A DNA stretch of 64,000 bases, taken from contig OX597820.1 in the NCBI GenBank assembly GCA_951406725.2, positions 9,548,001 through 9,612,000 on the forward strand, in the 5' to 3' direction. The notes under the pieces are model-generated. The model saw only the letters and a program-made list of their open reading frames with translations, was not told the DNA's origin and did not search any database. How positions within the stretch are numbered: the stretch's first letter is position 1; each line of letters begins with the position of its first letter. The position numbers were made by a program, and so were the translations under genes. Below are positions 4,827 to 61,937 of this stretch, one piece after another. The DNA is from Octopus vulgaris (Eukaryota).

Positions 4827-5470
4827 TCCAGGATTAAATCACTCACCAAGTCCTTTGTGAGCCGCTCTCCGGCTATCTATCTGTGGCTTTACATAGCTAT
4901 GGTGCGACCTCACCTGGAATTTGCATCACCAGTCTGGAACCCTTATCTTGCTCAGAATATTAATCGTCTGGAAGAATACCCTGCATCAGGCATTTGCCAT
5001 ATTCTGAACGCCTTACTTCCCAGGGCATGGATACATTGAAACTCCGACGTCTGGCAGCTGACTTGGCAGACACCCATAAAATTATTAACCATCTTACAAA
5101 CAATAACTCTGAGCACCTTTTCAAACTCCACCTGTCTAACACCCGTGGACATGTTTACAAAGTCAGAAAACAGCACAGCTCCTTCCATGACTTTCGGAAA
5201 CATTTTTTCACGCTGAGAGTTGCTGAAGCATGGAACAAACTGCCGGCATCAGTTGTTAGTTGTCGGAGCACTGCATCCTTCAAAACTTCCATGCTTCCTG
5301 AGATTCGCCAACACTACACCTGATTTTCTCCCCTCCATACACACGCAAGCATGTATCTGACTCATACACTGTTCACTTTCCAGACATTTCTACATTACTG
5401 CATGTACTTTATACGCACTTTTGACAAGTTGTGGTGCACCTGAGCACTGTATACAATAATTTCATTATTA
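4827..5470 (+). mobile_element. CR1-like LINE 3' fragment (RT C-terminus and 3' UTR)
   Basis: VRPHLEFASPVWNPYL...TRGH..K...[17 protein letters not shown]; (ATT)n-like tail; same family at 14075-14460 and 25410-25870. Confidence 0.85.
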
Positions 5471-9138: not shown

Positions 9139-9183
9139 TTAGAGTTTTCCAAGTTCATCAAGGTAGGCAGCAAATAGTTTGGT
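9139..9183 (-). CDS. CNDP2: CNDP2 last coding exon ([14 protein letters not shown])
   Basis: tacag acceptor; matches the C-terminal TKMLAAYLYEV of human CNDP2; TAA stop. Confidence 0.92.
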   Translation of the reverse strand, partial: TKLFAAYLDELGKL

Positions 9184-9695: not shown

Positions 9696-12118
9696 CAGGT
9701 AAAATCCCCAAGATATAAATACATATAAATATTTATAAATACATATAAATATTTATATAGATATAAATACATATAAATATTTATATAGGAGCGGCTGTGT
9801 GGTAAGTAGCTTGCTTACCAACCACATGGTTGCGGGTTCAGTCTCACTGCGTGGCACCTTGGGCAAGTGTCTTCTATTATAGCCTCGGGCAGACCAAAGC
9901 CTTGTGAGTGGATTTGGTAGACAGAAACTGAAAGAAGCCCGTCGTATATATATATATGTATGTGTGTGGGTGTATGCGTATGTTAGTGTGTCTGTTTGTC
10001 CCCAGAACATCGCTTGATAACCGATGCTTGTGTGTTTACGTCCCCGTAACTTAGTGGTTCGGCAAAAGAGACCGATAGAATAAGTACTAGGCTTACAAAG
10101 AATACGTCCTGGGGTCGATTTGCTCGACTAAAAGCAGTGCTCCAGCATGGCCACAGTCAAATGACTGAGACAAGTAAAAGAGAGTGCTTTACACATGGTT
10201 TCTATGGCTGGATGCCCTTCCTAACACCAGCCACTTCACCGAGTGTACTGGGTGCTTTTTATGTGGCACCAGCACCAGTGCTTTTTGGGGTCTTAGGGAA
10301 TGAAATATGAATGGGGGAAGAAAGCTGACAGAGCATTGCCCCTCAAGGTCATGCATTACCACGGTGGTTTTAGGATATTAATTCTTTTGTGGTGGGTAGG
10401 CTTTCTCGAGTATCACAGGCTTCTTTCAGTTTCTGTCTAACAAATTCACTCACAAGGCTTTGATTCTACTGGGGCTATAGCTAAAAAAACAAAAAAAAAA
10501 AGAAACACTTGTTCAAAGTGCTATGGAGCAGGACTGAACCAGAAACCATAGGGTTGGGAAGCTAAATCCTTAATGCCTTCCTATACTAATATATCACCAA
10601 ATATCCTTCGCCATACTGTGGTTCACCTATTGTGGTTTATCCTTTAAGCTTACGTCAATTCCTTTGTGATGATGTTTTGCATTTATAATATAATATATTC
10701 TTTTATTCTTCTACTTGTTTCAGTCATTTGACTGCGGCCATGCTGGAGCACCGCCTTTAGTCGAACAAATCGACCCCAGGACTTATTCTTTGTAAGTGCA
10801 GTACTTATCTATTGGTCTCTTTTGCCGAACTGCTAAGTTACGAGGACGTAAACACACCAACATCGGTTGTCAAGTAATGGTGGAGGGACAAACACATCAT
10901 ACACACATACGACAGGCTTCTTTCAGTTTCTGTCTATCAAATCCACTCACAAGGCTTTGGTCAGCCTGAAGCTATAGTACAAGACGCTTGCCCAAGGTGC
11001 CATGCAGTGGGACTGAACCTGGAACTATGTGGTTAGTAAGCAAGGTACTTACCACATAGCCATGCCTGTACTTCTTATTTCTTTATTGCTCACAAGAGGC
11101 TAAACACAGAGGGGACAAACAAGAACAGACAAAGGGATTAAGTCGGTTACATCGACCCTAGTGCATAACTGGTACTTATTTAATAGCCCCCGAAAGGATG
11201 AAAGGCTAAGTCGGCTTTGGCGGAATTTGAACTCAGAATGTAGCAGCAGACGAAATACTGCTTAGCATTTTGCTCGGCGTGCTAACGTTTCTGCCAGCTC
11301 GCCGCCTTGGACGGAGCCCCGGGACGATGGGATCCCGGGGCCGCAATGTGCATTCGAGGTGTCGATGTTCACTGTGTCCTGCAATTCACATCAGTTCATG
11401 CGGATAGCTGCGCTCTTCATCAACGGACGAACCGAGTGATCCCCCGTCCTTGAAAATATGGAATGCTTCACAAATTTGTGTGTCATCCTTGCGCAGGGGC
11501 CATGCTAATCTTCTCTGTGTCATTCCAATATTAGAATATGTACTGCCGTAGCTAGTACATGCCTACACTTCTTGCCCCACAGCCACACCTGTGCATATAT
11601 ATATACAAATTATAAAAATAATTAAAAAAATATACAGTACTGTTTCTACTTTGTGGATTTTCACCTGTCATGGGGGGTTTTGGAATGTCATACCTGTGAC
11701 AGACGAGGGATTACTGTATATAGAAAATGCAGATTCTAATTAAACAACTCAGATAATTAGTAAGACACTAACCCCTTTGATGAAATTGCTGATGTTGATT
11801 TTCTCATTCTGGGAGTGGGCCCCATCATCACAAGCACCCATGGGAAGCAGCAAAACATTTTTGTTGGTTGCTTGTTCCAGAGTGAGGGTCACTGGAATGC
11901 TACCGCCTTCACGGGTCATGTCAGGTTCTACGTCATACACTGGAAAAAACAAAAGAGAAATTAAACTTTAGTCACTGGAAAAATGTAATTGGTAATGAAA
12001 CCGAAAAAACCTGGGAAAATACAAAAGCAGACTTGGAATATTTTGAGTAAATGAAACGAATATTTAAATGCTTAAAAGTCACTTTTGTGAATGTCATTAT
12101 TTTTAAATCATCATCATC

Positions 12119-39006: not shown

Positions 39007-42000
39007 CATACACACACACACACTCACAATGCACACACCCAAACAATAACAGATTACATATGCTGAAAAAGGATAATTGCAATTAGACATGTAATTTGGG
39101 GCCATGGTAATTAGACCACACCAATTTGAAACCATTTAACAATTTAATTAGACCACACCAATTTGAAAGCATTTAACGAACCTATCCTGAGCTATTCGTT
39201 CTGAGTATGTATCTTTATGTATCATAATGAAATTATTTTCCCTAATTACTGTAAATCCTCAAGTATAATCCGCATTTTCCTCCCAAAATTTAAAGGTCAA
39301 AATCCCTAGTGCATACTATATACGAGGTTAAAAATGAAAATTATTTTCTAAGCAATGTCCAAGTCTCTATTTGCTGTCCGGCAATGTTTATTCAGACACA
39401 TTTTGTGATGTCGGGTGCGAAAATACCTTAAGCTAAGCCTGAAAGCAATGAAGTCATAAAAGAATCATCCATAACTTGCAGTAAACAACATTTATTAAAC
39501 GTTATTACTGTTATTTCTTTATTTTCTGCAAACAAAAGGCACAAAAAGCTACACATTTGCATTATGCTATATATACAATAATAAAGGACGTTACCGTATA
39601 CGTTTTACAAATCAAGGACATTATATAGACCTCCTTGACTCATCATCATCATCATCGTCGTTTAGCGTCCGTTTTCCATGCTAGCATGGGTTGGACGGTT
39701 CTACTGGGGTCTGTGAGAGAAATTTTTCAGAGGTACAGCCCCCTAAAAATCCCCTGCGTATTATACTCAAGGGTGGACTATACTCGAGGATTTATGGTAC
39801 ACAGTGAATACTGAGGTAAGAGAATGCTTTTCAACCACATGCTTCTGGGTTCAATCCCACCGCATCACACCTTGAGCAAGTGTCTTCTACTATAAACTCA
39901 GGCTGACCGAAGCCTTGTGAGAGGATTTGATAGACGGAAATTGAAAGAAGCCCAATGTAAGTGTGTGTGTCTTTGTCTTGATATTGCGTGATTGTGGTAA
40001 ATGAATCTCATTTCTTTCCAATATTCTGCAAGAACACATCTGGCTGTGAGGACAAACACAAATAAAGACACACACACACACACATACTGCATCTTCCAGC
40101 TTGTCACTCCTTGCTCAGTCACATTTCAAACTTCCTACTTAACTAAGACTTTGGTTTTTGCTAGATTGACTCTAAGGCACTTCAATTTTAGACCTTGCTT
40201 CCACACCTGAAACTTCATCTCTAGTTCTGGTAGTGACTCAGCTATCAGAGCAAGGTCACCAGCATAGAGAAGCTCCCAGGAGCAGCTTGTCTTGAATTCT
40301 TCTGTTATTGCCTGGAGGACTATGATGAATAAGAAGGGGGCTGAGAACTGATCCTTGGTGAACCCCTACTTCTACCCAGAATTCTTCACTATAGTCGTTG
40401 TCAACCCTCACCTTACTGACAGCATCCCTGTACAGGGCTTGTACAGCTCTCACCAACCATTCATCTATCCCAAATTTCTGCATTGAGCACCAGATAAAGG
40501 ATCGGGAGACCCTGTCAAAGGCTTTCTCCATGTCAACGAAAGCCAAATACAGAAGTTTATCCTTGGCTAGGAATTTCTCCTGCAGCCGTCTTACCAGAAA
40601 TATAGCATCAGTGGTACTTATCCCTGACACAAACCCAAATTGCATCTCGTCTAAACTACCTCTCTCCCTAATTAGTTGGGATATGACCCTCTCCATGACT
40701 TTCATCATCTGATCCAACAATTTGATATCTCTCTTATTATTCCTATCTACCTTTGTAGCAGTTAACCATGGTGCTGCTACACCAGTCATTGAGTATGACT
40801 CCCTTATGGTCAACTATTCGGGTGACTAGACTATAGTCTACACTGCCAGATATTTTAAGCATCTCAGCAGTGATTCCAGATGGTCCAGGGGCTTTCCCTT
40901 ACTTCAAAGGAATTATGGAACTAAATATTTACTGGCGCAGACATAGCTGTGTGGGTAAGAAGTTTGCTTTGTAACATCTTGGTCATGGGTTCTGTCCTAC
41001 TGCATGACACCTTGGGCAAGTGTTTTCTACCACAACTGTAGTGCCAACCAGTGCCTTGTGAGTGAATTTGGTTGACAGAAACTGTGTGAAATCCTGACGT
41101 ATGTACGTATATGTGTGTGTTGACAACTGGTGCTGGTTTGTTTATATCCCTATAACTTAGCGGTTCGTCAAAAGTGACCGATGAAATATGTACCAGATTT
41201 AAAAATAAATAGTGGGGACCAATGTGTTCTACTAAAACCGTTCGCTGACAGAAACGAGTAAGAAATTAAAAGACAGAAGTAGGACAAAATAATGTTTGTT
41301 TTCTATTGTTTCAATAAAAAAAAAGGGGCGGTTTCTGATTTAGGAACAAGGTCAGTGATTTTGAGGGGAAGAAATTAATCGAGACCGACAGGTACTAATG
41401 GGATACTAACTAAAAAAAAAAATTAAAAATTACGAAACGCCTTAAACTTATTTAGCCTGTTGTTTATAATTATTTCTATCATATATCACAATATTTTGTA
41501 AAAAAAAAAAAAAAAAAACTAGATTAAAAACAACCAAGAATTCACAAAGGATATTGTCGAGCCCCTTGTATCGGTAAGTCAATATTTCGGGACCCCTAAG
41601 ACGGCAAGCTGGCAGAAACGTTAGCACACCGGGCAGTATTTCGTCTGTCTTTACGTTCTGAGTTCAAATTCCGTCGAGGCTGACTTTGCCTTTCATCGTT
41701 TCGGGGTCGATAAATTAAGTACCAGTTGCGTACTGCGTCACTCTAATCGACTGTCCACCCCCTCACCAAAAATTTCAGGCCTTGTGACTAGAGTAGAAAA
41801 GAACATTTCGGGACCCTTGTATCCCATTAGTACCGACCAATAACGTTCATAGGAATAAAAAGCAGAGTTGACCTTGGTGCGATTTGAACTCAGAACATAA
41901 AGAACTGGAAGAGATATTACAAAGCACTTTTCCGATACCACGCCGAGAAAGTACCGACCACAGTCAGTAAATGAACTTTAAAACTTTAGATCTCTTACAT

Positions 42001-51134: not shown

Positions 51135-52882
51135 ATCATCATCATCTTCATCATTGTTTAATGTCCGCTTTCCATGCTGGCATGGATTGAACGATTTGAC
51201 TGAGGACTGGCAAGCTGAGAGGCTGCACCAGGCTCCAATCTTGATCTGGCAGAGTTTCTACAGCTGGGTGCCCTTCCTAACGCCAACCACTTCAAGAGTG
51301 TAGTGGGTGCTTTTATGTGCCACCAGCATGAGGGGCACTCTGGCGGTACTGGCAATGGCCACATTCAAATGGTGTTTTTTACGTGCTACCTGCATTGGCA
51401 ACAACCTTGCTCGAATATTTTTTCACATGCCACGGGCACACATGCCTGTAAGGCGACACAGGTAATGAACATGCTCGAATGGTGCTTTTTACGTGTCACC
51501 GGTATGGGAGCCAGTCAGCTGCTCTGGCAACGATTATACTTGGATGGTGCTCTTAGTGCTCCACTAGTACAGTTGCCAGTCATTGAATTTGATTTCGATT
51601 TCACTTGCCTCAACAGGTCTTCGCAAGCAGAGTTTAGTGTCTAATGAAGGAAAGATACGTGTAAGTGGGCTGGTTACACCCCTAGCATAAGCCACGAGGT
51701 TATGGTCTCACTTGGCTTGCCGGGTCTTCTCAAGCACAGCATATTTCCAAAGGTCTCGGTCGTTAGTCCTTGCCTCGGCAAGGCCTAATGTTCGAAGGTC
51801 GTGCTTCACCACCTCATCCCAGATCTTCCTGGGTCTATCTCTTCCACAGGCTCCCTCAACTGCTAGAGTGTGGGACTTTTTTACACAGCTTTCCTCATCC
51901 ATTCTTGCCGCATGACACACACATACATGCATGCATACATATATGCATGCATGCATAGATGACAGGTTCCTTTTAGTTCCTGTCTATCAATTCCACTCGT
52001 AAAGCTTTGTTTGGCCTGGGGTTATAGTAGAAAACATTCGCCCAAGATGCCACGCAATGGGCCTGAACCTGTATCCATGTGGTTAGGAAGCAAACCTCTT
52101 CACCATGTACCCATGCCTGTCCCTCTTCATTTAAAAATTTCATATCTTCAAAAGGTTAACATGCAGTTCCAAATACTCCATTTGATAGAAAATGATTTAT
52201 TCCTTCGATTCTTGTCTAAAATATTCAGTTGTTATTGTCTTGACTGGGCGTACCTTTCTGTTAATGTGCACCTGCGTAACGAAATGATTAGTCACAGCTT
52301 ACGACTTACCTTTAGGATATATGTGACTGTGAGTCATGGCTTTGGTAGCATATGGATACCTATTGGGTCATTCATCCTTGTGGGTAATAAAAAAATCAAC
52401 ATTTTGGGTCATCCCATAAATAATGCTTTTTTTTTCAATTGCATAAACTAAAAATGGTGGTGGTGGTGGTGGTGGTGGTGGTGGGGGAAATAAACTACCT
52501 GCATCAACTTGCTATAAAAGCAGTCCAGTCGTCTCTCTTGCCCACCACATCTGATGCTTCTTAAGTCCAACTTTTCTCTCAAGGTACTTACACTCTGTCA
52601 AGTATGTACACTGACATTACACATCCATCAGAGTATAGTGGCTTCATTCCTTGCAAGCTTACATATGTCCTCAGCAGTCACGGCCCATGTTTCACTGCCA
52701 TGTAGCATGGCTGTTAATACTCATGCATCATACAGTCTACCTTTTACTCTGAGCGAGAAGCCCTTTGTCACCAGCAGAGATAAGAGCTCTCTGAACTTTG
52801 CCCAGGCTATTCTTATTCTAGCAGCTATACTTTCAGTGCACCCACCCCTGCTACTGACTTGGTCACCTAGGTAATGGAAGCT
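51135..52882 (-). mobile_element. RTE LINE copy split in two (51135-51916 and 52521-52882) by a 600-bp insertion
   Basis: 52521-52882 encodes YLGDQVSS..RLYDA..ERRL; 51916 resumes at HAARMDEESCVKK..RPRKIW, collinear with 49730-50300. Confidence 0.8.
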
Positions 52883-54623: not shown

Positions 54624-57600
54624 TATATATACATATATGGAGGCGCAATGGCCCAGTGGTTAGGGCAGTGGACTCGCAGTCAAAGGATCGTGGTTTCGAT
54701 TCCCAGACCGGGCGTTGTGTGTGTTTATTGAGTGAAAACACCTAAAAGGCTCCAGCAGTGGGGTGGGTAGCGACCCCTGTTGTACTCCTTCGCCCCAACT
54801 TTCTCTCACTCTTTCTTCCTGTTTCGTGAGTAACGCTGCGATGGACTGGTGTCCAATCCAGCTGGAGGGGGGAACACATATTCCACAGAAACCGGGAAAC
54901 CGGGCCCATGAGCCTGGCTAGGCTTGAAAAGGGCATCGTTTATCATCGTTTTATATATATATATATATATATATGTCTAACCCATGCTAGCATGAAAAGC
55001 GGATGTTAAACGATGATGATGATGATGATGATGATATATATATATCAACTTCACAGCAGGAGATACAGATGAGGGCAACAGCATCAAACTCCCTCATGCA
55101 CCAAATGTCAATTTCTAAAAAGCATTAGTGAAGTAAAATTATGTAGCAACACCAAATGGCGGTGCCCCAGCATGGCCACAGCTCATGAGCTGAAACTAGA
55201 TCAGATCAAATCATAATATTCATTCCATTTTTTTTTCTTTTGATATTCTTCACTGGTTTCTCCGATGTGAGAACCTCAAGCATTAAAGTTACATACCACA
55301 AATGTAGCAGCTATCAATGTTATTCTTCACCACATCTACGTGTTACAATGTTGTCAATTAATTTGAACAGTTGTTATCATTGTTAACAATTCTTGTTATA
55401 ATTGGAGTCGTTACCTCTTCACATCAATAAGCATTACATAATTTCACCACACTGATAACACCTACTTGCTGATATATATCTGCCGCCGCATATACATACA
55501 TACATACATTAAGAATATATGAGCATGTTTAGACATGCAACTATATGGATAAACCAGAACATACAAATCCGCACATATGCATATGTAGTGGCAAAGGTGT
55601 AGCAAAAGAGGTCGTTAAGAGAGCAGATGAAGCAGACATGCAGACAACATCAAAGTAAAACAATGGGAAAGCATCGGATTGTGGTTTAAATAATTTATTT
55701 AATCGGCGCTTGCATTTACTTGTTGTATACACCAGAAAATTCACCACATGGCATTACCAACTTTGCTTTGAGTTGGTGAAGAAGAAAATAAACGAGAAAT
55801 ACTGTGTCAATATGATGAGGTGGAACCGGGCATGTTTTGTGTTTGTGTGTGCATTGGTCATTCTGTGGTGTCTGTTTATGTTCTGCCACTGCTACTACAT
55901 TGGGTCATTCATGCTGAATATGGGGTTCCCTGTTGGCTGCTTGACTGGCGCAAGTTAACTGTTGGCTGTCTGCTTGTCTCTTAACAGTTCACCTGGTGAT
56001 GGCTATCTGCATTCCCTTGACGGATTGCTGCTTAATGGCTATCTGACTGTATTTATATATTTCTTTATTGCCTACAAGGGGCTAAACATAGAGGGGACAA
56101 ACAAGGACAGACAAACGGATTAAGTCAATTACATTGACTCCAGTGCATAACTGGTACTTTATTTATCGACCCCGAAAGGATGAAAAGCAAAGTTGACCTC
56201 GGCGGGATTTGAACTCAGAACATAACGGCAGATGAAATATCGCTAAGACACACTAACGTTTCTACCAGCTCGCCGCCTTCTGACTGTATTTATAATGGTC
56301 ATGGCAGCTAGAAGGACAGACATACAACAGGAGTAATTTCTACTTATGTAGGTCACCTCCTGTTCACTTGAACCTTAAATGACGCAGCTTAGGTCGTAGG
56401 TCAAAGAGAAATCCATCCATCACTTTTTGATAGGACAAAGAAATTTCTTTTGCACCTGTTTAGCCAATGGTGGATCAGATGAGTGAGAATCCTTAGATTC
56501 AGTTTCGAATCTCAGCTCACAAAATGAAAGTGTTAGTTCTTACGCATAGATATATACAAAAGTATCCTTTTGATGCTGTTGAAATTCCAATGAAGGAACC
56601 TTGGATCTTGGTTAGAAACCGTTTCTTTCTCTATTGGCAAAAAATCTTGAAATAAAACTGATTAATGACATACATGTGTATTTATGGTGAATTAATTCCT
56701 GAACTTGTGAAGGTGCATGGCTCTGTGGTTAGAGCATCAAGCTTACAATCGTGAGGTTGTGAGTTTGAATCCTGGACCAGGCTGCGTGTTGTTTTCTTGA
56801 GCAAGACACTTTATTTCACGTTGCTCCAGTTCACTCAGCTGTAGAAATGAGTTTCGACATCACAGGTGCCAAGCAATATTGGCCCCTTTGCCTTTCCCTT
56901 GGATAACATCGGTGGTGTGGAGAGGGGAGGCCGGTATGCATGGGCGACTGTTAGTCTTCCATAAACAACCTTGCCTGGACTTGTGCCTGGGAGGGTAACT
57001 TTCTAGGGTAACAATCCCATGGTCATTCATGACCGAAGTGGGGTCTCAGCGGCAGCAATTCCTGAACTTACAGCTCTTGTACCCTGACTATGAATTCTCA
57101 TTTGTATCATCAAAGATGCATTAGTTTGTGTAGCAACAAATTTGCTTAATAACCTAGAAATACTCCATTTCACTAAGAAGAAGCAAAAGAAACTGACATA
57201 GATTCTCCAAACACAACCTATTAGTGGCACAGTGAAGATCTGTAAGACATGTGTGAATAGATACTCACACTTGGGTTTATGCATCAACAATTCAACCAAC
57301 TCAACAACATATTTGCAAATATTGGACATTTGTAGAAAGTCTTGTCGCTTTCCTAGCAACCAGCTTGATCTCTCAAGAATAACTTAAATAAAACTCAAGG
57401 AAAATCATACATACAGCGTGGAACCTTGGGCAAGTGTCTTCTACTATAGCCTCGGGCCGACCAATGCCATGTGAGTGGATTTGGTAGACGGAAACTGAAA
57501 GAAGCCCGTCGTATATATATATATATGTGTGTGAGTATGTTTGTGTATCTGTGTTTGTCCCCCTAGCATTGCTTGACAACCGATGCTGGTGTGTTTATGT

Positions 57601-60431: not shown

Positions 60432-61937
60432 GACCTTTTGATGTACTTGACTCAATAGGTCTCCTCAAGCACAGCAGGTCGCCCTACAATCCAAGGTAGT
60501 TTTGAATGGGCTGGGGCTGGTTATGTGAAACTGGTGTAGGATACAGCCTTGAACTCACTTTTTTTGCTGGGTTTTTGCAGTCACAGCATACCTCCAGAGG
60601 TCTTGGTCTTTCGTCATTGCCTCTGTGAGGCCCAACATTTGAAGGTCATGCTTGACCACCTCATCCCATGTCTTCCTGGGTCTACCTCTACTCTGAATTC
60701 CTTAAACTTTTTGGGAGTGGCACTTCTTCACACATCTCTCCTCATCCATCCATAGTACATGACCATACCAGCACAAATGTCTCTCTTGTGCATGCCACAT
60801 CCGATGCTTCTTATGTCCAACATTCCTCTCAGGGCGCTTACACTCTGTCGTGTGTGCACACTGACATTACACATCCAGCGTATCATGCTAGCTTAATTCC
60901 TTTCGAGCCTATGCATGTCCTCTGCAGTCACGGCCCATGTTTCACTGCTGTGAAGCATGGCAATTTGCACACATGCATTGTACAATCTACCTTTCACTCT
61001 GAACGAGAGGCCCTTTGTCACCAGTAGGGGTAGGAGCTTTCTGAACTTTGCCCAGGCAATTCTTATTCTAGTGGTTACACTATCTGAGCATCCACCCCCA
61101 CTACTAACTTGGTCACCTAGGTAGCAGAAGCTATCAACAACTTTTAGTTTCTCCCCATGGAGTGTAATGGAATCTGTTTTCTGAGCATCTTTCGTGTTTA
61201 TTGCCCCTGTGCATCTGCTGCACATGAACGCTATCTTCTCGGTTAATCTTCCTTTGATGTTGCTGCACCTCTTGTGTGTCCATAGCTTACACTGGGTACA
61301 TCTTATGGAGTTTCTACCTACACCTTTTCTACAGATCAAGCAGGGCCACATACCTGAAGGGGTGTTTGGTGTGTTTGCCTTCCTACTTACTAGAACTTTG
61401 GTCTTTGCTACATTGACTCTCTTTTGATTCTAAATCTTTTGATTCTAAATTTCTTTTCTAGTTTTGACAGTGATTCTGCTATGAGGGCCAGGTCATCAGC
61501 ATAGAGGAGCTCCCAGGGGCAACCCGTTTTGAATTCCTCTGTTATTTCCTGGAAGACTTTGATGAATAAAAGGGGGCTGAGGGCTGAACCGTGGTGGACC
61601 CCTACTTCTACCCGGAATTCTTCACTATACTCATTGCCAATCCTAATCTTGCTAACATCCTCTCTGTATAGGGCCTGTACAGCCCTTATTAACCATTCGT
61701 CAATCCCCAGTTTCTGCATCACCCACTAGATAAGGGATTGGGGGTCCCTGTCAAAGGCTTTCTCCAAGTCCACAAAAGCTAAGAATAGGAGTTTATCTTT
61801 AGCTAGGTATTTCTCCTGCAGTTGTCAAACCAGGAATATGGTATCAGTGGTGCTTCTACCCGGCACAAAACCGAACTGCAACTCATCTAAGCAGACTCTT
61901 TCCCTAATGAGATGGGCTATGACCCTCTCCATGACCT
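60432..61937 (-). mobile_element. Degraded RTE LINE (RT + PHD-type finger), 5'-truncated
   Basis: KVMERVI..QFGF, YADD, CLICRKGVGRNSIRCTQCKLWTHKRC, FCYLG; several frameshifts. Confidence 0.9.

Follow-up and report, generated by a model that had tools for sequence, protein, structure and literature searches.

A three-part U6–5.8S–SINE retrocopy, likely from one insertion, and a large class of small-RNA/SINE fusions in Octopus vulgaris

Results

Locus and anatomy of the unit

The window is the whole stretch analysed, 64,000 nucleotides of Octopus vulgaris (assembly GCA_951406725.2, contig OX597820.1, positions 9,548,001 to 9,612,000), and unlabelled coordinates refer to it. On the minus strand, the exon at 11939-11773 matches the cytosolic non-specific dipeptidase CNDP2 (E 5.7e-22); a Pfam search with this exon gave zero matches. 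It is the penultimate exon, the candidate last exon begins at 9183, and the last intron (11772-9184) contains a chimeric unit at 11062-11573 in sense orientation, as a preliminary description of this DNA had stated. The unit is at most a passenger in CNDP2 pre-mRNA.

Read along the minus strand, the unit consists of U6 snRNA, 5.8S rRNA, and SINE B, an order seen in the letters and in the Rfam search (U6, 104.1 bits at 11558-11452; 5.8S, 82.3 bits). Both the order and the covariance-model check called for in the preliminary description were thereby borne out. The U6 copy (11453-11558) is full-length, as judged from Rfam and from comparison with the tandem U6 genes of C1. The 5.8S copy (11309-11449), identified by Rfam and by comparison with the C20 rDNA array, comprises positions 7-147, counted from the AACCCT aligned to the start of the Rfam model; it falls about 10 bases short of the usual 3' end and has no ITS1 or ITS2. 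A linker, CAA, sits between the two (11450-11452) where the rDNA carries CCT, which contradicts the linker-free join described earlier. The near-complete 5.8S previously placed at 11452-11309 keeps its 3' limit, but its start moves to 11449. The CAA does not derive from the 5.8S gene and may be untemplated or partly U6 trailer. SINE comparison showed that the third part (11077-11308) is a full-length SINE B running from the usual AA-GGCGG start to a short GAAATA tail; there is no poly(A), the hallmark of an L1-mobilised chimera.

A single direct repeat surrounds the whole unit. Its 5' copy (AAGAAGTGTAGGCAT, 11559-11573, minus strand) abuts U6 base 1, and its 3' copy (AAGAAGTACAGGCAT, 11062-11076, minus strand) begins where the SINE tail ends; the two are 13/15 identical, as claimed earlier, they lie exactly at the unit ends, and the duplicate is located upstream of U6 only. 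The score of this target-site duplication (TSD) is 9, which 3.2% of mismatched flank pairs attain; the pair has 2 mismatches, and its opening bases are similar to both the tail of SINE B and the head of SINE A. The TSD letters are the opening bases of an older SINE A (10697-11076, minus strand; its tail resembles a CR1-type LINE tail), whose first bases are split by the chimera. A partial SINE A head, recognised by eye against other SINE A heads, remains as part of the target on the far side (11574-11594, minus strand). The preliminary description had omitted this head; the insertion actually lies inside the older SINE A. The window also holds LINE reading-frame fragments at 49934-51157 (-), 40256-40813 (-), 60893-61429 (-), and 4964-5323 (+), which we take to be RTE-like and CR1-like.

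The U6 copy differs from the C1 gene cluster type at 7 of 106 positions (6.6%) and the 5.8S copy from the C20 rDNA array at 9 of 141 (6.4%), five differences in each being CpG-type. The SINE B copy shows 22 differences in 232 positions (9.5%) from a 31-copy consensus, which is mixed. No octamer was found upstream of the window U6, where the alignment score is 18, compared with about 500 between U6 genes. Because the U6 has no promoter upstream and the 5.8S has no ITS flanks, the unit originated from RNA. The promoterless snRNA in sense orientation 5' of a SINE, within a single TSD, corresponds to the snRNA-retroelement chimeric retrocopies of Doucet group IV, and the three distinct transcripts with direct repeats around the whole only correspond to the tripartite chimeric retrogenes of Gogvadze 2007. 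The unit is a dead, decayed retrocopy with neutral-looking decay and no hint of function. The divergence of U6 and 5.8S, near 6.5% and inflated by CpG decay, matches the O. vulgaris SINE/LINE burst reported at distance 0.065, 18 million years (PMC13282606).

The private decay of 6-9% in all three parts, set against near-identical U6 genes and rDNA, makes it extremely improbable that the unit is an assembly chimera. The TSD also closes the unit, and over a hundred loci have the same design. A run listing with shares of up to 0.63 of the sampled words was not counted in favour of the assembly, since the unique intron could largely account for such shares.

A genome-wide class of fusions

The preliminary description had treated the unit as a one-off oddity. 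The genome (2.8 Gb, 227 contigs) instead contains a large class of such fusions. A first look gave 679 U6 candidates, and a 32-base pattern had 210 exact matches, 100 of which were listed. The survey of what follows the U6 oligo-T, as proposed earlier, covered 108 distinct U6 loci; at 89 of them, another RNA or a retroelement comes within 25 bases downstream. We then applied a strict rule, by which an element start (SINE start or LINE tail) must lie within 25 bases of the small-RNA copy. The U6 set comprised 95 loci once 8 loci that are genes and 5 duplicates within arrays had been removed; 28 of 70 5.8S loci had ITS and were set aside, leaving 42 dispersed copies; and 19 of 39 fetched 5S loci were examined, 8 of them gene or array type, leaving 11. 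In these samples, which favour intact copies, the rule was passed by 67/95 U6, 29/42 5.8S, and 8/11 5S dispersed copies, compared with 11 of 3000 random sites. A later-fetched set gave 11/16 for U6 and 2/4 for 5.8S. By exact pattern, 22 5S-to-B junctions were found, and the genome has at least 37,035 exact matches to the SINE B head. Only 1 of the 40 best-scoring U2 copies, a sample biased to genes, is chimeric, the others having gene-like flanks.

The junctions are nearly all distinct (23/24, 17/18, and 21/21), which indicates independent events. In 42 of 49 joins of U6 to SINE A or B, the junction lies no more than 8 bases from the start of the SINE. T- or A-rich linkers, 0-20 bases long and absent from both genes, are common at the joins; some of their bases agree with gene trailers. 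The T-run at 90 U6 junctions ranges from 0 to 9 with a mode of 5; the U6 of the window is complete, as described before, but its four terminal T, to which attention had been drawn, are unremarkable (16/90 junctions). In two-part copies, the 5.8S starts cluster at +4 to +8 (25/42), and the window copy (+7) lies inside this cluster; 3' ends span 88 to 161. The 5S copies retain gene trailers. SINE B is the partner in 20 of 29 5.8S chimeras and in 19 of 67 U6 chimeras (Fisher p 2.8e-4).

Among family-B chimeras with a tail (n = 35; 8 without one were dropped), 17 reach a TSD score of at least 9 at the same two positions as in the window, against 3.2% of mismatched pairs. The other 18 fall below the threshold, and some of these are explained by tandem SINE units.

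Several other arrangements were observed among the examined loci. U6 chimeras 5'-truncated at U6 positions 58-69 form a cluster (12/67 in the strict set; L078, L080, L084, L089, L092, L093, L097, L105, L110, L124, L128, L139, and L144). At L115 an inverted SINE B piece is joined to U6, as expected from twin priming, and L062-L067 (C1, 132.42-132.53 Mb) are six copies of one U6-tail chimera in a tandem array of about 20 kb. At L100, L101, L109, and L116, inverted U6 pieces lie head to head between mirrored flanks; these are probably DNA-level palindromes. SINE B also often forms tandem multimers joined at one internal site (L020, L051, L054, L136, L145, L183), with the TSD outside the whole run.

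A second triple and the case for one insertion

Rfam searches of 80 U6 loci found no RNA besides U6, and searches of 40 5.8S loci found one additional RNA, the 5S of L175. This locus (L175:321-781; C5, about 35,959,220-35,959,680) is a second triple, in which a full 5S (100.9 bits) is followed by 5.8S positions about 11-96 and then, after an A-rich linker, by SINE B at full length, all within one repeat (TSD 15/16). A scan of all loci examined for adjacent small RNAs gave no further mixed pair beyond the unit and L175. As a rough hint at the rate, a 5S is present on 1 of 20 other 5.8S-B copies, compared with about 1 in 1000 SINE B heads, a single case counted with patterns of different stringency. 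At L082 (C2, 23.37 Mb), a U6 with an upstream octamer runs straight into another U6, behind which lies a CR1-type tail. This could be a chimera inserted at the end of a U6 gene or another triple; the locus was not counted as a triple, given the octamer of its first U6.

Nested independent insertions, with SINE B arriving first and 5.8S and U6 (or a later-trimmed chimera) added separately, would fit a genome in which SINEs are dense and insert into one another's heads (L019, L022, L059, L096). The greater divergence of SINE B (9.5% against 6.6% for U6 and 6.4% for 5.8S) also counts against one event, though the consensus is mixed. However, no TSD flanks SINE B alone or 5.8S-B, neither U6 nor 5.8S has its own tail, the rate of chance adjacency is 0.37% per site, and the second triple shows the same layout. 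We therefore consider nesting very unlikely for the window unit. At L019 and L096, where SINE B pieces precede U6-B inside one repeat, it could serve as an explanation too. The TSD position, the equal decay of U6 and 5.8S, the two-part siblings, and the second triple all support one insertion of three RNAs via the SINE tail, in keeping with the preliminary description. The unit is a three-part member of a class with over a hundred two-part fusions.

SINE and LINE partners

Many U6 copies are followed by a 45-base tail, T1. It forms the 3' terminus of a LINE that has a long reverse transcriptase (RT) frame (a 536-aa open frame in L277), the C-terminus of which is presumably CR1-type. Dong/R4 had been considered as the partner for the short tails and was dropped when the tail was traced to this LINE. 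The tails of SINEs A and C are related to T1, and T1-T4 share a predicted fold of two hairpins whose stems have changed yet remain paired. L125 contains a U6 fused to another CR1-type LINE. In addition, the joins of U6, 5S, 5.8S, and U2 to a CR1-type LINE fall no more than about 5 bases from the foot of its terminal hairpins, the same point at which SINE C joins that tail (U6-T1 loci L004, L016, L090, L111, and L131; window 55154-55200).

The SINE B tail was found only behind B bodies (66/67) or 5.8S (1/67). None of the 30 top RVT_1 loci, searched for a LINE partner, ends in the B tail, and the region downstream of L024 contained no useful ORF. For the head of SINE B, ARAGORN reported 0 tRNA genes and Rfam no tRNA match; box-like motifs are visible by eye. 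Rfam shows no ribozyme at the start of the SINE or of the tail, a possibility that was also considered. SINE B may resemble MetaSINEs. The Meta motif gave nothing in the supplement files of PMC4824008 that were searched, and bivalve Meta SINEs are reported to use Nimb or CR1-Zenon (PMC11481361).

Copy number of the unit

The preliminary description had suggested that the unit, if multi-copy, would be a new composite SINE family. A genome-wide pattern of U6 end, up to 25 bases, and 5.8S start had one exact match, the unit itself. In a junction search, as proposed earlier, a 116-base query found no spanning match other than the unit in the best 40 of 612 candidates. Among 124 U6 loci examined, one has 5.8S next. 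Multiple copies with the same junctions, as in families of the SINEU or SINE3 type, were not found. Neither an octamer nor gene-like upstream sequence precedes the unit, so a promoter for the whole, as a family would require, appears to be missing.

Some points could be read in favour of a family. SINEs with snRNA heads exist, as in SINEU (PMC4494074), and the 5S-SINE B pairs L338 + L344 and L336 + L341 occupy different sites with the same junction within each pair, so that some 5S-headed fusions may re-retropose; a shared trailer of one 5S gene could equally produce such pairs. With the U6/5.8S junction single-copy and the upstream U6 promoter absent, the composite-family reading is largely refuted, and there is next to no chance that the unit belongs to such a family or founded one.

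Discussion

Serial template jumping and ligation

Of the two mechanisms put forward in the preliminary description, RtcB-type ligation and template switching, the evidence favours the second and disfavours the first. The unit is a single-copy retrocopy, and we consider it likely that it was made in one insertion by a LINE RT that copied the SINE and then jumped to 5.8S and U6. Target-primed reverse transcription would have begun at the SINE tail, with the nick in the older SINE A head, and the RT would have run off at the first base of SINE B. A first jump would lead from the SINE start to the 3' end of 5.8S RNA, again with run-off, and a second from 5.8S to the U6 3' end, with completion at U6 base 1; the order of copying would thus be SINE, 5.8S, U6. 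Such jumps would proceed end to end, aided by a few untemplated bases or by RNA tails that would now appear as linkers. The chimera would hardly be able to spread as a unit, since U6 was captured without the promoter upstream of its gene and that of the SINE would start downstream of the captured RNAs.

SINE RNAs made by Pol III begin with a 5' triphosphate, and primary transcripts end in a 3'-OH. RtcB needed a cyclic phosphate as well as a 5'-OH, and when the partner carried a 5' triphosphate, 0 of 26 products were full-length (PMC6789731). In a ligation scenario, one joint or both would arise by linking U6 or a cut 5.8S with a 2',3'-cyclic phosphate to a 5'-OH RNA, and the fused RNA would then be retroposed via the SINE tail. 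The mechanism has been shown for human U6/L1 (PMC6789731), and human chimeras arise by prior ligation according to PMC8857657, which counts against jumping. The four terminal T of the window U6 also suit ligation, as do the spread of 5.8S 3' ends from 88 to 161, some of which may be cleavage products, and the narrow site of the CR1-type tail joins, as cleavage would yield; the 5.8S of the window, stopping at 147, could itself be a nuclease product fit for ligation. However, ligation gave variably truncated partners, none full-length with a 5' triphosphate, whereas here 42/49 U6 joins lie at the SINE start. The 5S copies with gene trailers look like primary transcripts, additional linker bases are the rule, and the T-run length varies. 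The window likewise departs from the direct join to a truncated partner seen in the RtcB-ligated U6 chimeras of Moldovan 2019, given its CAA and the SINE-start joins of the class. The joins at the first bases of the SINE and the variable linkers favour jumping, and ligation at either joint appears unlikely.

Jumping by the R2 enzyme depends on untemplated additions (PMC8857657), and in vivo it reaches U12 and tRNA (PMC3414825). In our case, the AA that precedes the SINE does not prove untemplated addition, since it also stands on 19 of 20 stand-alone B copies.

Relation to known chimeras

Chimeras of U6 and SINEs have precedents. In platypus (U6-Mon1/U6-L2) and Anolis (U6-AnolisSINE2), U6 is fused to the 5' side of a SINE or of a short LINE tail with flanking TSDs, as in octopus; these genomes have stringent non-L1 LINEs, and the chimeras were attributed to template switching (Doucet et al. 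2015, PMC4476161). The octopus unit differs in the 5.8S placed between the two and in its invertebrate host, and the octopus class in capturing 5S and 5.8S and in its often full-length U6. The TSDs of octopus B chimeras measure 7-24 bases, compared with 1-9 in platypus and Anolis (PMC4476161), and the words '5.8S' and 'invertebrate' do not occur in that paper.

Three-part chimeras are also known. WEIRD-MgSINE-MGL in Magnaporthe and B2-U6-L1 in mouse are tripartite retrogenes with three RNA copies within one TSD, explained there by double template jumps (Gogvadze et al. 2007, PMC2104539). Those triples have two retroelement parts with a LINE as the 3' part, whereas the octopus triples combine two housekeeping RNAs made by different polymerases (5.8S with either U6 or 5S) and a full SINE at the 3' side.

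Human U6/L1 chimeras formed via RtcB ligation (Moldovan et al. 2019, PMC6789731) and primate 5S/L1 and 28S/L1 chimeras (PMC11838501) share with octopus the U6 oligo-U end at the joint and rRNA pieces as partners. Their L1 is variably truncated, while the octopus joins lie at the first SINE bases and carry extra linker bases. The terms '5.8S' and 'tripartite' are absent from PMC11838501. The Drosophila R2 jumps to U12 snRNA and tRNA, a few single-jump cases confined to rDNA (PMC3414825), resemble the octopus events in that an invertebrate non-LTR enzyme passes from a template 5' end to small stable RNAs. Unlike them, the octopus events are dispersed, number over a hundred, use SINE templates, and include double jumps. 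Structural-RNA heads on retroposon bodies are found in SINEU (PMC4494074) and in 5S- or 28S-derived SINEs (PMC10946416), which amplified with common junctions; the octopus unit is single-copy and the junctions of its siblings differ.

The preliminary description knew of no U6-5.8S-SINE chimera in invertebrates. In the literature covered, mostly open-access, we likewise found no 5.8S-SINE, U6-5.8S-SINE, or cephalopod small-RNA-SINE chimera, though repeat libraries and supplements could contain such cases. The available portions of PMC10946416, PMC5322556, PMC2718515, PMC4824008, and PMC4758252 contain no 5.8S chimeras. The use of 5.8S as a partner and the occurrence of such a class in a mollusc are thus apparently undescribed, U6-SINE and three-part chimeras being known already. 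An O. vulgaris repeat paper has SINE rows named '5S', 'U', and 'U-L1', listed without description (PMC13282606), and part of the class may already be annotated there by name.

Meaning of the class

The origin of small-RNA chimeras is disputed, with ligation shown for human U6/L1 and jumping mostly in vitro for R2. The natural junctions in octopus (SINE-start joins, 5S and 5.8S partners, double joins) are poorly explained by ligation, and these features make the question of ligation or jumping testable outside mammals. The value of the unit is that of the most elaborate witness of a large class. Retrocopies also preserve a record of captured RNA ends, and those of 5.8S may mark the mature 5.8S ends and oligo-U tails in octopus. 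For annotation, caution is advised, as SINE-capped pseudogenes make up most annotated U6, 5S, and 5.8S loci outside gene arrays in genomes of this kind. In the giant squid, the copy numbers of 5S and U2 have been reported as extreme (PMC6962438).

Some further features were seen in the sampled loci. In the 5.8S loci L049-L060 and L151-L190, the copy mostly begins between +4 and +8 and stops between 153 and 158, with T-rich bases next. U2 genes with conserved flanks are spread over many chromosomes (L221-L250, L261-L269), and L260 is the sole U2-LINE tail chimera among the U2 copies examined. At L044:1640-1950 (C33), an rDNA fragment breaks in ITS2 and continues, as read by eye, into an RT-gene-like piece.
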